DNA of 64,000 bases from Candidatus Pacearchaeota archaeon (GCA_016181895.1 JACOYL010000009.1:3346-67345), one strand, 5' to 3'; positions 3,311 through 17,386 are shown, counted from the stretch's first letter. Notes: a model not told the origin generated them from the letters alone. Translations and numbers: made by a program.

Positions 3311-3583
3311 TCACGTTCCCCGCTTGTAAATATTGTCGTGATGGTCGTAATCTTCAATTATTATGTGTTTTTTATTTTCATCAACAGAGAAGACAAGCAC
3401 AAAACTTTTGTCAATATGAACCCTTTTAAGATGTTGCAGCGGTTTTCTTAAATTCTTATAATGTTGCGGATTTTGCCTGATTTCTTGAATTTTATTCTCT
3501 ATTATCATCAGTTGTTTGGAATTTTTCTTGGCTAACTTGAAGAATATCTTTTCAACATTTTTCCTTAATTCATAAGAATACAT
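3311..3583 (-). CDS. relE: RelE/ParE-family toxin
   Basis: 90 aa. 'QNPQHYKNLRKPLQHLKRVHIDKSFVLVFSVDENKKHIIIEDYDHHDNIY' is the typical RelE/ParE C-terminal pattern. Lies 1 nt downstream of the partner ORF. Confidence 0.7.
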   Translation of the reverse strand: MYSYELRKNVEKIFFKLAKKNSKQLMIIENKIQEIRQNPQHYKNLRKPLQHLKRVHIDKSFVLVFSVDENKKHIIIEDYDHHDNIYKRGT

Positions 3584-3584
3584 T

Positions 3585-3818
3585 TTAGTTCAAACCAAAA
3601 TGTTTTTTGAAATTGGTAATCTTTATAGTCGGTTCCAATTGCCTTTTTCTCATTTTCTCAATAAATTCGGGTCTCAAATCAGGCTCGGCTTCATCGTCAA
3701 TATATTTGCTGACTACGAAATTTATCGCCTCGGATTTGTCCTTAAAACCATATTTGGCTTTTATCAGATTCAAAACCCTGTTAAGATTCTCATCAAGTTC
3801 TATTAATGCTCTAACCAT
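3585..3818 (-). CDS. Antitoxin partner of RelE (small DNA-binding-type protein)
   Basis: 77-aa ORF immediately upstream of relE and tightly coupled to it. Confidence 0.5.
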   Translation of the reverse strand: MVRALIELDENLNRVLNLIKAKYGFKDKSEAINFVVSKYIDDEAEPDLRPEFIEKMRKRQLEPTIKITNFKKHFGLN

Positions 3819-10227: not shown

Positions 10228-11025
10228 TTATTTTAAATCTTTGCTAATTTCTGAAAAGAGTTTTTTCCAGACTTTCTCGCACAAATCAAGTATCTTCTCA
10301 AAATCCTCGACGCTTAATGAGAAATGATCCCCCTTCTGCATCGAGTAAATTGTTCCCTCATGGCTTCCGATTGTCACTCTTGTTTCGCTTATGTCTTCTT
10401 CTTCCTGGCTCGGGTCTATGAGAAAATGGCTTCCGATCTTGTGGATTGTTATTGATAATGGGATTTCCTTTTTTGTCGGAATTTTTTCTTTCGTCCATTC
10501 TCCATAGACGACTTTTCCGGTTTCCTCGTCGTACTTTGGAATTTTGGCGTTTTTCAAGGCGACAACAGCACCGATTCCCGCCGCATCGAGCAAATTCCCG
10601 TCGGCGTTCATTGAATAAATGTCTATGAAGATGTTCCAGACTTTCTCTCCTTCCTTTATGCACAATTTTTCCAAGTCGATGAACTTGCTTTCCCTTACCA
10701 TCCTGTCGATTATTCTTGCAAGTTCTATTGACTCGATGCTTGGGGGTCCCGGCTCGAATCTCTTTGAACTTAATGGAAGCAATTCAGCCGTAACCATGAG
10801 GTTTCCCTTGTCGGGCGAATCTGAATAAGGTTCCGCCAAATCCATTTTCACCCCCACAATGACTTCCGTGTTTCCCAATTTGACGCGCGCGCTTCCCTCG
10901 GCTTTGTTTGAAATCCCTGTTTCTATTTCTATGTTCCTGAATTCGTCGAACTTTCTTCCGTCGAATCTTTTTCCGTGCTCGAGGTATTCCTTTATTCTCT
11001 CTCCTGTTATGTATGGTGTTTCCAT
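10228..11025 (-). CDS. rrp42: Exosome complex subunit Rrp42 (RNase PH-like, inactive type)
   Basis: 'GKRFDGRKFDEFRNIEIETGISNKAEGSARVKLGNTEVIVGVK'. 265 aa. Position in the superoperon. Confidence 0.85.
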   Translation of the reverse strand: METPYITGERIKEYLEHGKRFDGRKFDEFRNIEIETGISNKAEGSARVKLGNTEVIVGVKMDLAEPYSDSPDKGNLMVTAELLPLSSKRFEPGPPSIESIELARIIDRMVRESKFIDLEKLCIKEGEKVWNIFIDIYSMNADGNLLDAAGIGAVVALKNAKIPKYDEETGKVVYGEWTKEKIPTKKEIPLSITIHKIGSHFLIDPSQEEEDISETRVTIGSHEGTIYSMQKGDHFSLSVEDFEKILDLCEKVWKKLFSEISKDLK

Positions 11026-11201
11026 TATACAAATCTCTCCTGACTTTGTTCTGTTTCAAAATTTCTGTATTTATTTTGCCTTATATTTCTTAATTTTGAT
11101 TGAAATTTCCTTAGCATTTCTATGTCCCCATCTTCAGCAGATAATTCTAACATTAATTTGTAATAATTTTCTCTCCTGCTTGGCAAATATTCTTTATCCA
11201 T
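11025..11201 (-). CDS. Small ORF (58 aa) wedged between rrp41 and rrp42
   Basis: Not in the ORF track (below 60 aa). 'MDKEYLPSRRENYYKLMLELSAEDGDIEMLRKFQSKLRNIRQNKYRNFETEQSQERFV'. Starts 1 nt after the rrp41 stop codon. Its TAA overlaps the rrp42 ATG (TAATG). Confidence 0.35.
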   Translation of the reverse strand: MDKEYLPSRRENYYKLMLELSAEDGDIEMLRKFQSKLRNIRQNKYRNFETEQSQERFV

Positions 11202-11202
11202 T

Positions 11203-11910
11203 TTATTTTTCCTCCAAACTTTCCTTCAAGGCTTTTTTCTGGATTTCATAAATTTCCTTGCAGGCTTTTCTTGCCATTTTAATTGCTTCTTTCAATTGCT
11301 TTGTCTCGATTTTTCCGTCAAGCTGAATGTGCGTGATTCTTCCGTCAGATGTCATCGTTATCGGAATGTCTGTGGCTCCTTCTCCCTCTTCCCAGTCTTC
11401 CTCGTCTTTTGCAACGTCGACGACAAGTTGCTTGTCGAGTTTTCCTATTGAAACGCTTGAAACAATGTCTCTCATAGGAATTCCCGCGTGCGCAAGAGCC
11501 AAAGCTGCCGCGTTTATTCCCGCGCATCTTGTCGATGCGTTTGCCTGAATGATGCTCACGTAAACATCAATCACTGTTCCAGGAAACCTGTCTGTCATAA
11601 CAACAGGCTCGAGAGCCCATTCTGAAATCTTGCTTATTTCCATGCTTCTTCTGCTTGGTCCTGGGCGAATTCTTTCTGAAACAGAGAAACTTATCATGTT
11701 GTAATTGTATCTCAATGTTCCCTTTGCGACATTTTGCAGGTGCGCGGGGTGCATTTTCTTGGGTCCGTAGACGGCGGCGATTGCTATAGTGTCGCCGAAT
11801 GAAAACATCGCGCTGCCGTCGGCGTTTCCTATGATTCCAACTTTCGCGGTTATCTTTCTTGTCTCGTCGATTTTTCTTCCGTCGGGGCGTTTGAAATCTT
11901 TTTCTTTCAT
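11203..11910 (-). CDS. rrp41: Exosome complex exonuclease Rrp41 (RNase PH)
   Basis: 'RPDGRKIDETRKITAKVGIIGNADGSAMFSFGDTIAIAAVYGPK'. Confidence 0.9.
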   Translation of the reverse strand: MKEKDFKRPDGRKIDETRKITAKVGIIGNADGSAMFSFGDTIAIAAVYGPKKMHPAHLQNVAKGTLRYNYNMISFSVSERIRPGPSRRSMEISKISEWALEPVVMTDRFPGTVIDVYVSIIQANASTRCAGINAAALALAHAGIPMRDIVSSVSIGKLDKQLVVDVAKDEEDWEEGEGATDIPITMTSDGRITHIQLDGKIETKQLKEAIKMARKACKEIYEIQKKALKESLEEK

Positions 11911-11911
11911 T

Positions 11912-12244
11912 TTAATCGTAAACCCTCCTTTGTTTATCTTTCAACGTAAAATAAAGTTGCGCCACGTCTTCTTGGCTAAGTCTAGATACTTGGTTAATTT
12001 CATTTAATCTCCTCTGATTAACACTTTTCTTTTTATCGTATTTTAACAAAGGAAAGATTTGTTCACTATTTCTTTTCAAATCTTCAACATGATTCATAAA
12101 CCACGCGGCTGCAACCCCAGCATTTTCTATTACTGTCCCGCCAATAAGTTCTCCACTCGGCCCTTCATCAATCAACATTAGCGTATAACCACTTGAAGGA
12201 AATAAGTAATCTCCAACTCTTGATAACATTTTTCTAAGACTCAT
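11912..12244 (-). CDS. Hypothetical protein (110 aa) inserted in the exosome operon
   Basis: ORF 11912-12346. Met35 (12244) directly follows the stop codon of the 73-aa ORF. Its own stop lies 1 nt before the rrp41 start. Confidence 0.45.
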   Translation of the reverse strand: MSLRKMLSRVGDYLFPSSGYTLMLIDEGPSGELIGGTVIENAGVAAAWFMNHVEDLKRNSEQIFPLLKYDKKKSVNQRRLNEINQVSRLSQEDVAQLYFTLKDKQRRVYD

Positions 12245-12245
12245 T

Positions 12246-12467
12246 TTATTTTTTTGCCTCTGTTTTAATTTCAATTTCAAGTCCTCCGACAATAACTCTA
12301 TCTGGAGATGCTCGGGATATTCTCTCCATATGTCTCTTATAAACATTTCTTATCCCAGTATAATATTTCTTGAATGATGGAGATAATACCTCTTCTATTA
12401 ATTGGTCATTAGTTTCCAAATTTGTTGCATTAACTCTTCCATCTTCATACTCCAATCTTATTTTCAT
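12246..12467 (-). CDS. Hypothetical protein (73 aa) inserted in the exosome operon
   Basis: Its ATG overlaps the rrp4 stop codon (ATGA). Confidence 0.4.
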   Translation of the reverse strand: MKIRLEYEDGRVNATNLETNDQLIEEVLSPSFKKYYTGIRNVYKRHMERISRASPDRVIVGGLEIEIKTEAKK

Positions 12468-13129
12468 TTCCCCCTCCGATTTTTCTCAAACCATTTTTTT
12501 ACTTCTTCCGTCAATCCCTCGACAAATGATTTCTCGACGATGTGCAAAATCGCCTTCTTCGCGAACAATTCGTCCTCGACATTGTTTCCCTGAATCCATA
12601 TGATTCCGTTTTGTCCGACGGTTATGTTGCACCTTGTTTCGTCCTTAATCATGCTTATCATGCTCCCCTCTTTTCCGATAACACGGGGAACCTTGTTTGA
12701 ATTTACCTCCATCGTGATTCCCTTTTCTATTTTTCCCAAGCCGTGCATCTTCGTCGTCAAGTCAATTCCCCTTTTTGTTATTTCGTTTATTTTCGCGACA
12801 ACCATGTCTCCCAAGTCGAGAAATTCATCCAGCCCGTTTTTGTTCACGAATCTCGGAGTTTCCATCAAAGGAAGAAAAGAGGTTTCGGGAGTTCCGATGT
12901 CTATAACCCAGCCGTTGAATGTGATGTTCTCGACTTTTCCTATCACAAGATTTCCTCTTCGCGGAATGTAAACTCCCGACAAAGGAATTACTTTCACGAG
13001 TTTGTTTGCTTCCTCCGCAAGCCCGTATTTTATCGCGACTATGTCATTTCCTCTTTTTTCCGTTCCGTCTCCCGGAAGATAACTTTCTCCGCTCACTATG
13101 ACTTCGCCGGGAATTATCACTTTTCTCAT
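12464..13129 (-). CDS. rrp4: Exosome RNA-binding subunit Rrp4 (S1 + KH)
   Basis: 'YIPRRGNLVIGKVENITFNGWVIDIGTPETSFLP' (S1) and a C-terminal KH-like 'IGKEGSMISMIKDETRCNITVGQNG'. Confidence 0.85.
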   Translation of the reverse strand: MRKVIIPGEVIVSGESYLPGDGTEKRGNDIVAIKYGLAEEANKLVKVIPLSGVYIPRRGNLVIGKVENITFNGWVIDIGTPETSFLPLMETPRFVNKNGLDEFLDLGDMVVAKINEITKRGIDLTTKMHGLGKIEKGITMEVNSNKVPRVIGKEGSMISMIKDETRCNITVGQNGIIWIQGNNVEDELFAKKAILHIVEKSFVEGLTEEVKKWFEKNRRGK

Positions 13130-13401
13130 TTTTGTTTTAATTTAACTCCAAATTTACTCTGCATGAATTCAGCATATTTTTCAATCGTTTCTCTTTCTCC
13201 TGAAAGTTCAACTTCTGCCTGCTTCCCGGAGTCATCAAAAGCATTTCTTACAGCCATTCTTATTCCCCTATATCTTAAATTATAACTTCTTGTATCCTTT
13301 TCAAGTTCTACACAATTTTTGTAAAATTTGTATGTTTTGGCATCAAAAACAAACACTGACAAGGGCGCATCATTCTTGAAAACTAAATATTCAATCTTCA
13401 T
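13126..13401 (-). CDS. Hypothetical protein (91 aa from Met23) inserted between SBDS and rrp4
   Basis: ORF 13126-13467. The internal Met at 13401 abuts the upstream 73-aa ORF stop codon. Its own stop overlaps the rrp4 ATG (ATGA). Confidence 0.4.
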   Translation of the reverse strand: MKIEYLVFKNDAPLSVFVFDAKTYKFYKNCVELEKDTRSYNLRYRGIRMAVRNAFDDSGKQAEVELSGERETIEKYAEFMQSKFGVKLKQK

Positions 13402-13402
13402 C

Positions 13403-13624
13403 TTATGCCGCTTTTTCCAAAAATTTATTTTGATAACTTTCGCAATTAAAATTGCATCTTCCGGCAAACATTTGCTTATAATAACTGCACCAACTCTTGT
13501 TATTAGTGGGAATTTCGCTATTAATACAAGATTTATATGCGGGAATATTTCTTAATTTTTCAGTTAATCTTTCTGTTTGAGTTTGTGAACTTTCTATTAC
13601 TATTTGTAAACTCTTTAAGCTCAT
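13403..13624 (-). CDS. Hypothetical Cys-containing protein (73 aa)
   Basis: Its ATG overlaps the SBDS stop codon (ATGA). Confidence 0.3.
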   Translation of the reverse strand: MSLKSLQIVIESSQTQTERLTEKLRNIPAYKSCINSEIPTNNKSWCSYYKQMFAGRCNFNCESYQNKFLEKAA

Positions 13625-14292
13625 TCTTTCATCTCCTCCGTCAAAATCGCGCCGTGCGTCGCTGAATTTAATTTGTCGTAAAAATCAATTATAAATCCCG
13701 CCGGAATGCTGGCTATGATTTCCAAGTCGCCGTTTGAAAGCCAGTTTTCCTCTTCCTTATACTGATTGACAAGCCCGTAGGCTTTTCCGGTATGAATCGC
13801 TGGAATCGTGATTTTGACTTTCTTCGTTTCTATTTTTATGGGAAGGATCTTGCTTATCTCTGAAATTATCTCTTGAATTTGATTTTCAATTGCGACGTTT
13901 TTGATATTCACATGAGATTGTTCAAGCGCCGATTTAATTCTCTCTGGAGTGTGCGGCATTCTCGTTTGCGGATTAATCGCGTTTCTAGAAAGGAAATCAA
14001 CAACCTGTTTTATTCTCTTTTCCTTTTCTTCTTCCCTGAAATCTTGGGTTAGAAGTATCTCTCCGCTTTTCACGATTTTCTGCGCGATTTCATAAATGTC
14101 GTCTGTTCCGAAAGAATTTTTCAAATCAGATTCCTTCGCGGTGAATCCTTTTTTGCTGTCGGAAAAAATCTTGTCGATTTCCAGAAAATCGCTTCCTTTT
14201 CCCGTTTTCTTGAAATTTATCGCCTTTTCCAAGTCAACGAGAATTTCAAAATGTTTTCCAGACTGTTTTATTCTTGCGGTTGTTTGCGTCAT
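13621..14292 (-). CDS. SBDS-family ribosome maturation protein
   Basis: 'ARIKQSGKHFEILVDLEKA' N-terminal FYSH-domain signature. 223 aa. Superoperon position. Confidence 0.85.
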   Translation of the reverse strand: MTQTTARIKQSGKHFEILVDLEKAINFKKTGKGSDFLEIDKIFSDSKKGFTAKESDLKNSFGTDDIYEIAQKIVKSGEILLTQDFREEEKEKRIKQVVDFLSRNAINPQTRMPHTPERIKSALEQSHVNIKNVAIENQIQEIISEISKILPIKIETKKVKITIPAIHTGKAYGLVNQYKEEENWLSNGDLEIIASIPAGFIIDFYDKLNSATHGAILTEEMKE

Positions 14293-14540
14293 TTTGAATC
14301 TTCCCCTGAAAAAACAGCTTCTAATTTAACTAAATTTTTCCCTGCTCTGCTAAACATTATATTATTAAATACGGGATAAATACTTTCTATTTCTTGTCTA
14401 ATTTTTATAGGTAATTTTTCTCTTGCTTCTAAATCTAGGGTTTCTCCATTATGAGTTAAAAAAAATTCTGTTCTGTTACCATATTCTCGAGGTTTTATTT
14501 CTACTCTTAATATATATTCATTTCCCATATTACTTTGCAA
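14289..14540 (-). CDS. Hypothetical protein (83 aa) inserted between psmA and SBDS
   Basis: Its stop codon overlaps the SBDS ATG (ATGA). Met5 (14528) follows the psmA stop codon. Confidence 0.4.
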   Translation of the reverse strand: MQSNMGNEYILRVEIKPREYGNRTEFFLTHNGETLDLEAREKLPIKIRQEIESIYPVFNNIMFSRAGKNLVKLEAVFSGEDSK

Positions 14541-15252
14541 AATTCTTTAATTCGTTTCCCTCGAGTCTTGTGATTTTTCCCTTATCATCGATGTAAACAA
14601 CCTCGAATTTCTCGATGTTGAATTTCGTGCCTTGAATTTCCTTGAAAACATCAAGAACTGTTTTGACGCCTTTCTTTATCGTCAAGTCGTGCTTGTAAAC
14701 TTCCCTCAGCTTTTCCTTTATTTTGTCGTCGTTTTCCCCGATTGCGTTCGCGTGATACGAGAAATAATTTCCGGAGACATTGCTTACGTACAACTCCGGT
14801 TTCTTTCCGTTCATTCCCGCGAGCATGAAGAAAACCCCGAAAGGCCTTGCGCCCCCGTATTGCGTGAATTGCTGTTTTATGTTCGCGATTTCCTTTATGA
14901 CAAGTTCCGGTTCTATGGGAGAATCGTAAGTCACCCTGTGTTGTTGCGAAATTACCTGCGCCCTTTCAACAAGAACTCTCGCGTCCGCGACAACGCCTGC
15001 TGCTGAGGCAATTATGTGCGAATCGATTTCGTAAACTTTGTTCGCGGATTTTGAAACAATCAATTTGTCGTCTATTCTCTTGTCCGCAAGAATGAAAACT
15101 CCGTCTGTGCAAGCCATGCCGACGCTGGAACTTCCCCACTTTGTCGCCTTTTCCGCATATTCAACCTGAATTATCGTTCCTTCGGGAGAAAACATCGTGG
15201 CAGTCCTGTCATAGCCCATTGCCTGATGCTGCATATCCATAGGTAAATCCAT
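14530..15252 (-). CDS. psmA: Proteasome subunit alpha
   Basis: 'GYDRTATMFSPEGTIIQVEYAEKA'. Confidence 0.9.
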   Translation of the reverse strand: MDLPMDMQHQAMGYDRTATMFSPEGTIIQVEYAEKATKWGSSSVGMACTDGVFILADKRIDDKLIVSKSANKVYEIDSHIIASAAGVVADARVLVERAQVISQQHRVTYDSPIEPELVIKEIANIKQQFTQYGGARPFGVFFMLAGMNGKKPELYVSNVSGNYFSYHANAIGENDDKIKEKLREVYKHDLTIKKGVKTVLDVFKEIQGTKFNIEKFEVVYIDDKGKITRLEGNELKNFAK

Positions 15253-16385: not shown

Positions 16386-16420
16386 TTCCCCTCAATCCCT
16401 TCAACGTCCCGCTGACTTTC
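16386..16420. repeat. Direct repeat DR1: duplicate of the pop5 3' end
   Basis: 'ttcccctcaatcccttcaacgtcccgctgactttc' matches 17113-17147 at 34 of 35 positions. Confidence 0.9.
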
Positions 16421-16483: not shown

Positions 16484-16831
16484 TTATATTAACTTAGAAA
16501 ATTCTTCTTTTACTTTTGATAAAGTTATTTTATTTACTTTAGCAATTCTCTTGTTGATAATGCTTTTATTCAGAGTAAATAATTTGTCAATCTTAATCCT
16601 GCTTTTTGCAGGTATTCTGCCATTTTTCAAATCACTATTATCAATTAAAACAGAATATTTTGCGTCTTTCAAATTTGAAGTAATTCCGCAAGTAATAACG
16701 TCATCAGATGTCTTATTGGCAATATCCTTGGACAATATTAAAACAGGTCTTTGTTTTATGTTGCTTAAATCAGAAAAAGGGAAGGGCACAACAACAATTT
16801 CTCCTTGTTCATACATCATTCCATATTTCAT
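16484..16831 (-). CDS. mazF: MazF/PemK-family toxin
   Basis: 'GEIVVVPFPFSDLSNIKQRPVLILS'. Confidence 0.8.
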   Translation of the reverse strand: MKYGMMYEQGEIVVVPFPFSDLSNIKQRPVLILSKDIANKTSDDVITCGITSNLKDAKYSVLIDNSDLKNGRIPAKSRIKIDKLFTLNKSIINKRIAKVNKITLSKVKEEFSKLI

Positions 16832-17042
16832 CGTATTTATTATTCCATAATTTCTTGGCTACTTTCTCAGAATGTTTTAACAAATCAGAGAAATCTTCTT
16901 TCCTAAGCTTTTTAATTACAATGGAATTATCGCTCTGTGTTATGATAAGTTCATCTCCCTGTTCAATATTTAAGATTTCCCGAATTTTAATAGGTAACGA
17001 AATCTGCCCTTTATCTGTAACTTTGATAATTTTAGTTTCCAT
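16809..17042 (-). CDS. mazE: AbrB/MazE-type antitoxin
   Basis: 'KVTDKGQISLPIKIREILNIEQGDELII'. Overlaps mazF. Confidence 0.75.
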   Translation of the reverse strand: METKIIKVTDKGQISLPIKIREILNIEQGDELIITQSDNSIVIKKLRKEDFSDLLKHSEKVAKKLWNNKYDEIWNDV

Positions 17043-17107: not shown

Positions 17108-17386
17108 TCATTTTCCTCTCAATCCCTTCAACGTCCCGCTGACTTTCTTCACTTCAATTTTCTCGGGAAAAACAGCCAGCGACGCGCGGACTTCATTAAT
17201 CACTTCTCTGTTGATGCAAATAATCGCGCTTTCATTTTCAGTCTTGATGAAACTCAATCCTGATTTTGACATCCCTAAAATCCCAAGAAAATCAAGAATT
17301 GCTTTTTCAATATTTTCTCTTAAGTTTTTCCCAATAACAAGAAGATATCTTTTATTCTCACGCATTGTCGGTTTCAGGGTTTTCAT
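17108..17386 (-). CDS. rnp2: RNase P protein component 2 (Pop5/Rpp14 homolog)
   Basis: 'LKPTMRENKRYLLVIG...' N-terminal motif. Small size. The canonical neighbour of psmA in the archaeal superoperon. Confidence 0.7.
   Translation of the reverse strand: MKTLKPTMRENKRYLLVIGKNLRENIEKAILDFLGILGMSKSGLSFIKTENESAIICINREVINEVRASLAVFPEKIEVKKVSGTLKGLRGK
17113..17147. repeat. Direct repeat DR2: last 11 codons of pop5
   Basis: Partner of 16386-16420. Confidence 0.9.

Follow-up and report, generated by a model that had tools for sequence, protein, structure and literature searches.

An archaeal exosome/proteasome superoperon was reportedly described by Koonin, Wolf and Aravind in 2001, and its canonical form is not known to have genes between the members psmA, SBDS, rrp4, rrp41 and rrp42. 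Here, we describe a version of this superoperon in a 64,000-nucleotide stretch of DNA from Candidatus Pacearchaeota archaeon (GCA_016181895.1, JACOYL010000009.1:3346-67345), and this whole stretch is called the window below. The core order psmA-SBDS-rrp4-rrp41-rrp42 is kept, with pop5 upstream, but one or two small open reading frames (ORFs), six in total, sit in each of the internal junctions between psmA and rrp42. These six ORFs are probably passenger small genes that ride on an essential operon and are exchanged rapidly, rather than fixed subunits of the exosome or proteasome.

The closest described parallel is the insertion of ORFan genes into native operons. In E. coli and B. subtilis, native operons frequently take up such genes behind one of their own genes, where their position does not imply a shared function and can mislead annotation, and the mechanism of their insertion is unclear (Price, Arkin & Alm 2006, PMC1480536). 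The ORFs in the window are similar in that they have no relatives beyond a narrow group, lie downstream of native genes whose promoter they would use, and are missing at the corresponding site of related genomes. In contrast to the bacterial cases, all internal junctions of one ancient, essential archaeal operon are hit, about 28% of junctions are affected across the order, inserts are replaced between close genomes, and gaps are strictly filled by sense ORFs with -4/+1 boundaries. By this analogy, the locus may best be read as a version, on the scale of DPANN archaea, of ORFan insertion into a native operon.

Two other bodies of work are relevant. In Haloferax volcanii and E. coli, NTGA overlaps and stop-to-start spacings of -4 to +1 support translational coupling of gene pairs; coupling requires spacings near -4 to +1 and disappears once the spacing exceeds about 30 nucleotides (nt), and untranslated RNA in archaeal operons is exposed to FttA-dependent polarity (PMC12548453). 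The junctions described here have the same kind of overlaps and spacings, but their coupling is predicted from sequence, and what stands out is that new orphan ORFs conform to the pattern on both sides. Species-specific orphans of gut bacteria are likewise rare and lineage-restricted, have operon-like arrangements in some cases, and are in some cases matched by an unrelated-looking orphan at the orthologous site of a sister species (Vakirlis & Kupczok 2024, PMC11293555). That survey of gut bacteria describes no junction-exact insertion into a coupled essential operon, and most orphans there match their surroundings in G+C content, whereas the inserts described here are lower in G+C than their neighbours. 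The features particular to the present case are the occupation of every internal junction from psmA to rrp42, the exact boundaries, the speed of exchange and the contrast with uncoupled spacers.

Organisation of the operon and its small ORFs

The genome that holds the window (G000) is a metagenome-assembled bin of 0.74 Mb in 24 contigs. The public genomes closest to it carry the labels Pacearchaeota, Woesearchaeota or Nanoarchaeota, and it is therefore considered a DPANN archaeon. All genes of the array lie on the minus strand, and their positions are counted from the first letter of the window. The five core genes are co-oriented and in the canonical superoperon order, which is also found in 97 related loci.

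The array begins with psmA (15252-14530), which encodes the proteasome alpha subunit (Pfam Proteasome, 5e-46, and Proteasome_A_N) and shows 86-91% identity to its counterparts in the three genomes of the genus that yielded the gene. It is followed by o79 (14528-14289), which fills the psmA|SBDS junction, and by the SBDS/Sdo1 homologue (14292-13621; Pfam SBDS_N, SBDS_domain_II and SBDS_C). Between SBDS and the exosome cap subunit gene rrp4 (13129-12464; Pfam ECR1_N, RRP4_S1 and KH) lie o73a (13624-13403), which encodes a cysteine-rich mini-protein of a family termed famA, and o91 (13401-13126). Similarly, o73b (12467-12246), of a family termed famB, and o110 (12244-11912) precede rrp41 (11910-11203), the gene of an RNase PH ring subunit of the exosome (NCBIfam TIGR02065, ECX1, 1.8e-82). 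The rrp41|rrp42 junction is filled by o58 (11201-11025), ahead of the exosome ring subunit gene rrp42 (11025-10228; NCBIfam NF003282, 4e-90). The four gaps between core genes that the small ORFs occupy measure 237, 491, 553 and 177 nt in the order given.

The joins between these genes are exact. ATGA overlaps link o79 to SBDS (14289-14292), SBDS to o73a (13621-13624), o91 to rrp4 (13126-13129) and rrp4 to o73b (12464-12467), a TAATG overlap links o58 to rrp42 (11023-11027), and TAAnATG motifs with a 1-nt spacer stand at psmA|o79, o73a|o91, o73b|o110, o110|rrp41 and rrp41|o58. The stop-to-start spacing is -4, -1 or +1 at 10/10 junctions, within the range reported for coupled pairs (PMC12548453). 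A preliminary description of this DNA had listed six co-oriented ORFs joined by such overlaps and 1-nt spacers, and both the ORFs and the joins were recovered. The exception is its 83-amino-acid (aa) ORF (14540-14289), which begins with a TTG inside the conserved C-terminus of psmA; the ATG at 14528, giving 79 aa, is the likely start of o79 and matches the pattern at the other junctions. Alternative starts also exist for o91 (TTG at 13467, 113 aa) and o110 (ATG at 12346, 144 aa), and independent public gene calls picked the 73-, 91-, 110- and 58-aa versions.

The inserts have a G+C content of 0.27-0.33, compared to 0.37-0.41 in 2-kb windows across the operon. Across the whole genome, 23 gaps between larger co-oriented genes are tiled in the same way, four of them consecutively in this operon, so that small genes sandwiched in this manner also occur at other loci.

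Absence from close relatives and databases

When the operon regions of 20 relatives were searched by tblastn (E-value up to 0.01), none of the six ORFs gave a match; four of these relatives belong to the same genus and have Rrp41 proteins 82-92% identical to that of the window. Hence the small ORFs are missing from these four sister genomes, and beyond the genus only the sparse families of o73a and o73b were found. The closest relative, G003, has a mean core-protein identity of 86%, and its psmA-SBDS-rrp4 spacings are 8 and 4 nt where the window has 237 and 491 nt, so three of the six ORFs are wholly absent at these tight junctions. It bears other ORFs at the remaining two sites, of 69 aa at rrp4|rrp41 and 112 aa at rrp41|rrp42. 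The latter belongs to a family shared with two further loci (L076 and L100), which suggests that o58 may have replaced an older occupant of this junction or may be a remnant of one. The 69-aa ORF and o73b have about 20 N-terminal codons in common, the sole hint of hidden homology.

For the family search, the six proteins were concatenated and compared with 401 genomes of the order, and profile searches followed. Relatives of o73a and o73b are restricted to this order, and the other four ORFs (o79, o91, o110 and o58) are orphans. For o79, no relatives were found in the operons of the 20 relatives or in the 401 genomes. A search of 5.8 billion clusters returned only the self match for o91 and o73b, and the same clusters together with 1.84 billion representatives gave only self, and no full-length relative, for o110. 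Searches of all six ORFs against Pfam, NCBIfam, PHROGs and PADLOC yielded only noise, with no toxin, antitoxin, defence or phage family among the matches, and Pfam and NCBIfam (E up to 1) gave no similarity to Csl4, DnaG or any known family. Furthermore, the 0.74-Mb genome holds no paralogs of the six ORFs, also when family hidden Markov models were used, and no repeated DNA, and no meaningful repeats were found within the locus.

Some weak matches were considered and set aside. That of o79 to a 426-aa gene of G377, with what by eye is a class II aminoacyl-tRNA-synthetase-like motif, is at chance level (per-genome E 0.0075 over 401 genomes), as is that of o110 to a 242-aa gene of G117 that appears TrmB-like by eye (per-genome E 0.0023 over 401 genomes). 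Matches of o110 to giant repeat proteins among the representatives were read as compositional.

Inserts across the order

The operon was rebuilt in 97 non-redundant loci of Pacearchaeota/Woesearchaeota type, giving 428 junctions, and a gap of at least 120 nt was counted as an insert. The relatives in this survey are mostly fragmented metagenome bins, and their core-gene starts were set by rule. Inserts are present at 119 of the 428 junctions (about 28%) and the remaining 72% or so are tight; gap sizes are bimodal, being either tight or about 150-600 nt. The statement in the preliminary description that these core genes are normally directly adjacent therefore holds for the majority of relatives, but not for all of them. 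Each junction is affected: psmA|SBDS in 23 of 74 loci, SBDS|rrp4 in 32 of 84, rrp4|rrp41 in 28 of 90, rrp41|rrp42 in 25 of 93 and rrp42|rpoK in 11 of 87. The SBDS|rrp4 gap of L032 (genome G002) was left out of the insert counts; most of it (1416-1566) is a stretch of N, after which the final 16 SBDS codons appear once more, and it is probably a scaffolding or masking artefact rather than a real insert.

Sense-strand ORFs cover at least 90% of the insert in 91 of the 114 inserts that were analysed. The first insert ORF starts at -4 relative to the upstream stop in 33 cases and at +1 in another 33, and the last one ends at -1 (37 cases) or +4 (23 cases) relative to the downstream start. As controls, junctions of the same loci that are uncoupled and have normal promoter-sized spacers were used. 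Enlarged spacers were filled by ORFs in 0/28 cases at pop5>psmA, 5/33 at rpoK>eno and 0/29 at eno>uS2. Since the control spacers are rarely filled in this way, the rule that gaps are filled by sense ORFs is specific to the interior of the coupled operon, and the contrast points to a translational filter. Such a rule agrees with the narrow spacing range of coupling and the polarity of untranslated RNA reported elsewhere (PMC12548453).

Turnover of the inserts

By far most of the 153 insert ORFs share no relationship with each other. Sixteen genome pairs have Rrp41 proteins at least 90% identical, and 13 junction comparisons between them involve an insert: nine set an insert against a tight junction, four involve unrelated inserts and none involves homologous ones. 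For pairs with at least 80% Rrp41 identity, the similarity of ORFs at the same junction is bimodal, with about 10% clearly homologous (z 4-45) and the remaining 90% or so indistinguishable from different-junction controls. Hidden weak homology among same-junction ORFs was considered and rejected, as tests against shuffled controls gave this bimodal picture with no general weak signal.

Some pairs do retain homologous ORFs. For example, L076 and L100, with Rrp41 82% identical, have homologous ORFs at four junctions that are 28-39% identical over the aligned regions, and the insert proteins of L076/L100 and L099/L102 together are retained at 28-47% identity over aligned regions despite heavy divergence. 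In the closer pairs L084/L087 (Rrp41 96%) and L063/L064 (98%), the inserts are unalignable between well-conserved flanks. Because L076 and L100 keep their ORFs while closer pairs do not, the inserts appear to be replaced rather than to diverge in place at a common rate. The core-gene DNA of the "close" pairs is only 80-93% identical, which weakens any replacement inferred from unalignable interiors alone, and therefore the replacement claim rests on the rate comparison with L076/L100. One of the loci named here, L102, is a contig (DATKUW010000062.1) that carries the archaeal operon, with Rrp41 75% identical, and was deposited under a "Bacillota bacterium" bin; it is probably mis-binned.

Chance expectation and coding signal

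The probability of such tiling by chance was assessed with 1000 dinucleotide-preserving shuffles per gap, counting the open frames needed to tile each one. The observed tiling, with 1, 2, 2 and 1 open frames from psmA to rrp42, was reached by 0, 0, 0 and 18 of the 1000 shuffles, and shuffled gaps needed a mean of 3.7-10.4 pieces. The open frame of o79 was matched in 0/1000 shuffles and that of o58 has P 0.016. In addition, Logan contigs from three sequencing runs (SRR12113430, SRR12113420 and SRR12113384) match the stretch from rrp4 to rrp42, inserts included, at 99.98-100% identity, with one mismatch in 4164 nt. No Rfam family matched the region 10900-14700.

Codon use was measured by a log-likelihood score for which the 270 longest ORFs of the genome served as training set. 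Of the six ORFs, five score among segments of real genes, above about 99% of spurious ORFs, and score best in their own frame of the six; the exception in both respects is o73a. Against the stricter null of a random open frame of equal base composition, o91 (P 0.026), o110 (P 0.019) and o73b (P about 0.02) stand out, and these three have period-3, gene-like codon use. The whole o73a frame is nevertheless considered coding despite its weak codon score, because its cysteines are conserved. The possibility that o73a and o91 are a single frameshifted gene was dropped, as the C-terminal half of o73a holds cysteines that four relatives share. Ahead of the earliest start available to o91 (TTG at 13467), its frame has no stop for a further 26 codons, back to 13551, and across 13403-13551 on the minus strand it has a better codon score than the o73a frame despite the conserved cysteines of o73a there.

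The expectation of the preliminary description that ORFs of 73-110 codons are unlikely to be noise is thus borne out by the shuffle tests, the independent contigs and the order-wide tiling rule. As part of the passenger explanation, the balance of evidence favours six genuine small genes over noise.

Two sparse protein families

The two ORFs with relatives represent new small-protein families, both small in size. The family of o73a, famA, has five members (in G000, G403, G014, G292 and G040), and 4 of the 401 genomes of the order carry it. Residues C33, C46, C61, P28, S36 and Y64 do not vary among the members, and with C57, which is conserved as well, this is a mini-protein with four conserved cysteines. 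Within the operon, the family occupies SBDS|rrp4 in two genomes (G000 and G403) and psmA|SBDS in one (G014); elsewhere it is found between an MCM-like gene and another gene in G292 and near a TFS-like gene in G040. The family of o73b, famB, has seven members, in 7 of the 401 genomes. It is found at rrp4|rrp41 in three genera (G000, G279 [locus L075] and G120), and elsewhere after an apparent tRNA gene in G224, before a GNAT-like gene in G211, and in G174 and G177. The neighbours of famA genes outside the operon were named by eye from sequence. The nine other genomes with members of either family have no o91-like or o110-like neighbour beside them.

Structure prediction and profile searches, which had been proposed as checks, gave mixed results. 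An AlphaFold2 model of o73b from a six-sequence alignment is confident (predicted local distance difference test, pLDDT, 92.3; predicted template modelling score, pTM, 0.76) and consists of a beta-hairpin, a 24-residue helix and a C-terminal strand. Foldseek found nothing significant for this model in PDB or BFVD (best E 2.3 and 0.05), so that famB offers a confidently modelled beta-hairpin/helix domain with no fold match in these sets. The single-sequence model of o110 is unreliable (pLDDT 42). Profiles of famA and famB against the sequences of solved structures gave nothing below E 0.1.

In G177 (L154, 131-2393), the famB gene lies within a head-to-tail string of at least six small ORFs of 86-112 aa. 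Upstream of the string is an ORF of 229 aa, which by eye is elongation factor 1-alpha-like. This string is possibly an islet of small accessory genes.

A passenger explanation and its alternatives

The pattern is best accounted for by small genes drawn from a fast-turnover accessory gene pool of Pacearchaeota/Woesearchaeota-type DPANN archaea, which would lodge in the stop-start junctions of psmA-SBDS-rrp4-rrp41-rrp42. The inserts would be transcribed from the operon promoter, and ribosomes that finish the upstream gene could translate them by termination-reinitiation at the ATGA, TAATG or TAAnATG motifs. A selective filter may then operate, in which only complete sense ORFs abutting both neighbours survive, because the downstream essential genes need coupling and untranslated RNA invites polarity; such a filter would result in exact tiling. 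Over short evolutionary times, cargo would arrive, disappear and be exchanged for other cargo, and its products would be passengers, at most optional and lineage-specific.

Several points weigh against this explanation. The presence of famB at rrp4|rrp41 in three genera and of famA at SBDS|rrp4 in two is above the expectation for random placement, and this recurrence at the same junction could reflect a functional tie to the operon. The codon statistics of o79 (P 0.12), o58 (P 0.30) and o73a (P 0.69) are not above those of a random open frame, and selection at the protein level on o79 and o58 is therefore only putative. Tightly coupled or overlapping gene pairs often encode partners of one complex, according to the title of a study listed in the references of PMC12548453 (Huber et al. 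2023). Moreover, the insert ends give no pointer to a source of the DNA or a mechanism of insertion: they carry no repeats or duplications, and at the borders of the 114 inserts target-site duplications and duplicated gene ends show no excess over controls.

The first of these points could also favour a different explanation, namely that the small proteins, or a part of them, assist the exosome, SBDS or the proteasome as optional accessory factors specific to the lineage, encoded beside their partners so that coupled translation yields matched amounts. The repeated placement of famB between rrp4 and rrp41 and of famA in the operon, including the psmA|SBDS site in G014, the well-folded model of o73b and the title of Huber et al. 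are all in line with this. However, none of the ORFs occurs in the four same-genus genomes, G003 has tight junctions, 4/7 famB and 2/5 famA members lie at unrelated loci, and each family is present in only 4-7 of the 401 genomes. In other genomes the same junctions hold unrelated ORFs, rrp42|rpoK shows the same behaviour, and no similarity to Csl4, DnaG or other known families exists in the searches described above. Accessory factors are therefore an unlikely general explanation, and the suggestion of the preliminary description that the ORFs are new exosome or proteasome factors fails for fixed ones, although famA and famB may have a facultative tie to the operon, given where their members sit.

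It is about equally doubtful that some of the ORFs, chiefly o79 and o58, are bridge ORFs, whose frame is kept open only to carry ribosomes through and whose peptide is unconstrained. The tiling rule, which holds inside the operon and almost never in the spacers between operons, would be expected under this explanation, as would the dissimilarity of most insert ORFs even between close genomes. The random-like codon use of o79, o58 and o73a and the low G+C content of the inserts are also consistent with it. In contrast, residues of o73a and o73b are conserved across genera, o73b has a confidently predicted fold, o91, o73b and o110 have gene-like codons, and the insert proteins of L076/L100 and L099/L102 are still recognisably related. 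Bridging would also leave the origin of 200-550 nt of stop-free DNA unexplained.

A more specific extension of the passenger explanation, to which we assign a similarly low probability, is that in Pacearchaeota/Woesearchaeota-type archaea this essential coupled operon has junctions dedicated to the landing and nursing of new small genes. Complete ORFs bounded by TAAnATG/ATGA would be inserted, excised and swapped exactly at the junction between close strains with no recognisable recombinase, repeat or target duplication, possibly by microhomology at the junction motif, and the need of the operon for unbroken translation would filter the survivors. If true, this would be a recombinase-free analogue of a gene-cassette system within core information-processing operons.

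The preliminary description had also raised selfish two-gene modules that exploit a highly expressed operon. That the inserts ride on a conserved, presumably well-expressed operon agrees with this, but module families, pairing and repeats were not found. As a separate explanation, in which o73a+o91 and o73b+o110 are toxin-antitoxin-like or selfish modules or mobile-element remnants, it is very improbable. The 1-nt spacers and protein sizes are typical of type II modules, and similar modules lie beside the operon (see below). Set against this, Pfam, NCBIfam, PADLOC and PHROGs are without a match, the relatives of o73a and o73b are single genes and never have an o91-like or o110-like partner, and the locus and the 0.74-Mb genome contain no paralogs or multiple copies of the six ORFs and no terminal repeats, target duplications or recombinase associated with them.

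The weakest alternative, which treats the ORFs as artefacts of assembly or as open frames that arose by chance in AT-rich spacer DNA, deserves hardly any credence: although the genome is a metagenome-assembled bin, o58 alone reaches P 0.016 and an antisense ORF of 80 aa also spans its gap, it is contradicted by the shuffle tests, the matching contigs from three independent runs, the exact -4/+1 junctions at all ten boundaries, the gap-filling rule over 97 loci and the lack of any Rfam family in the region.

The passenger explanation has practical consequences. For annotation, it is a warning against guilt by association, as position alone is no basis for naming exosome or proteasome genes in DPANN archaea. 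For evolution, a highly conserved archaeal array would be a hot spot of gene flux in reduced genomes. It also provides a simple testable rule, that a coupled operon tolerates only translated, abutting sense ORFs, and opens to test the ways in which new small genes come to be expressed and in which operons take in insertions.

Neighbouring genes and further observations

The next conserved gene, rpoK/rpo6 (10199-9819, minus strand; NCBIfam NF002208, 1.9e-20), begins 28 nt downstream of rrp42. Unlike in the canonical superoperon, insertions also interrupt the pop5|psmA and rpoK|eno neighbourhoods of the genome. After rpoK lies a gene pair in which one member has a PIN domain and the other is MazE-like. 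Between pop5 and the region upstream of psmA, a direct repeat with 34/35 identical positions (16386-16420 and 17113-17147) brackets a two-gene cassette (16484-17042) and looks like an integration footprint from its sequence; this repeat has no counterpart at the junction ORFs inside the operon. Another two-gene pair, near a tRNA islet (3311-3818 of the window), has a relative directly upstream of psmA in G003 (L031, 3610-4117), which makes the pop5|psmA spacer another site of variable insertion in this genus.

Insertion may reach into a core gene itself. In L058, L071, L074 and L130, the Rrp41 matches span 841-885 nt compared to the usual 700 nt or so, that is, they are about 140-185 nt longer, and these lengths suggest an insertion within rrp41. 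Finally, insert ORFs often start with TAAaATGA or ATGAC and finish with ...TAAaATG, so that a heptamer-like stop/start motif stands on both sides (10980-14600 and junctions of relatives). This shared motif may be only the preferred coupling signal of the lineage, or microhomology used in exchange.

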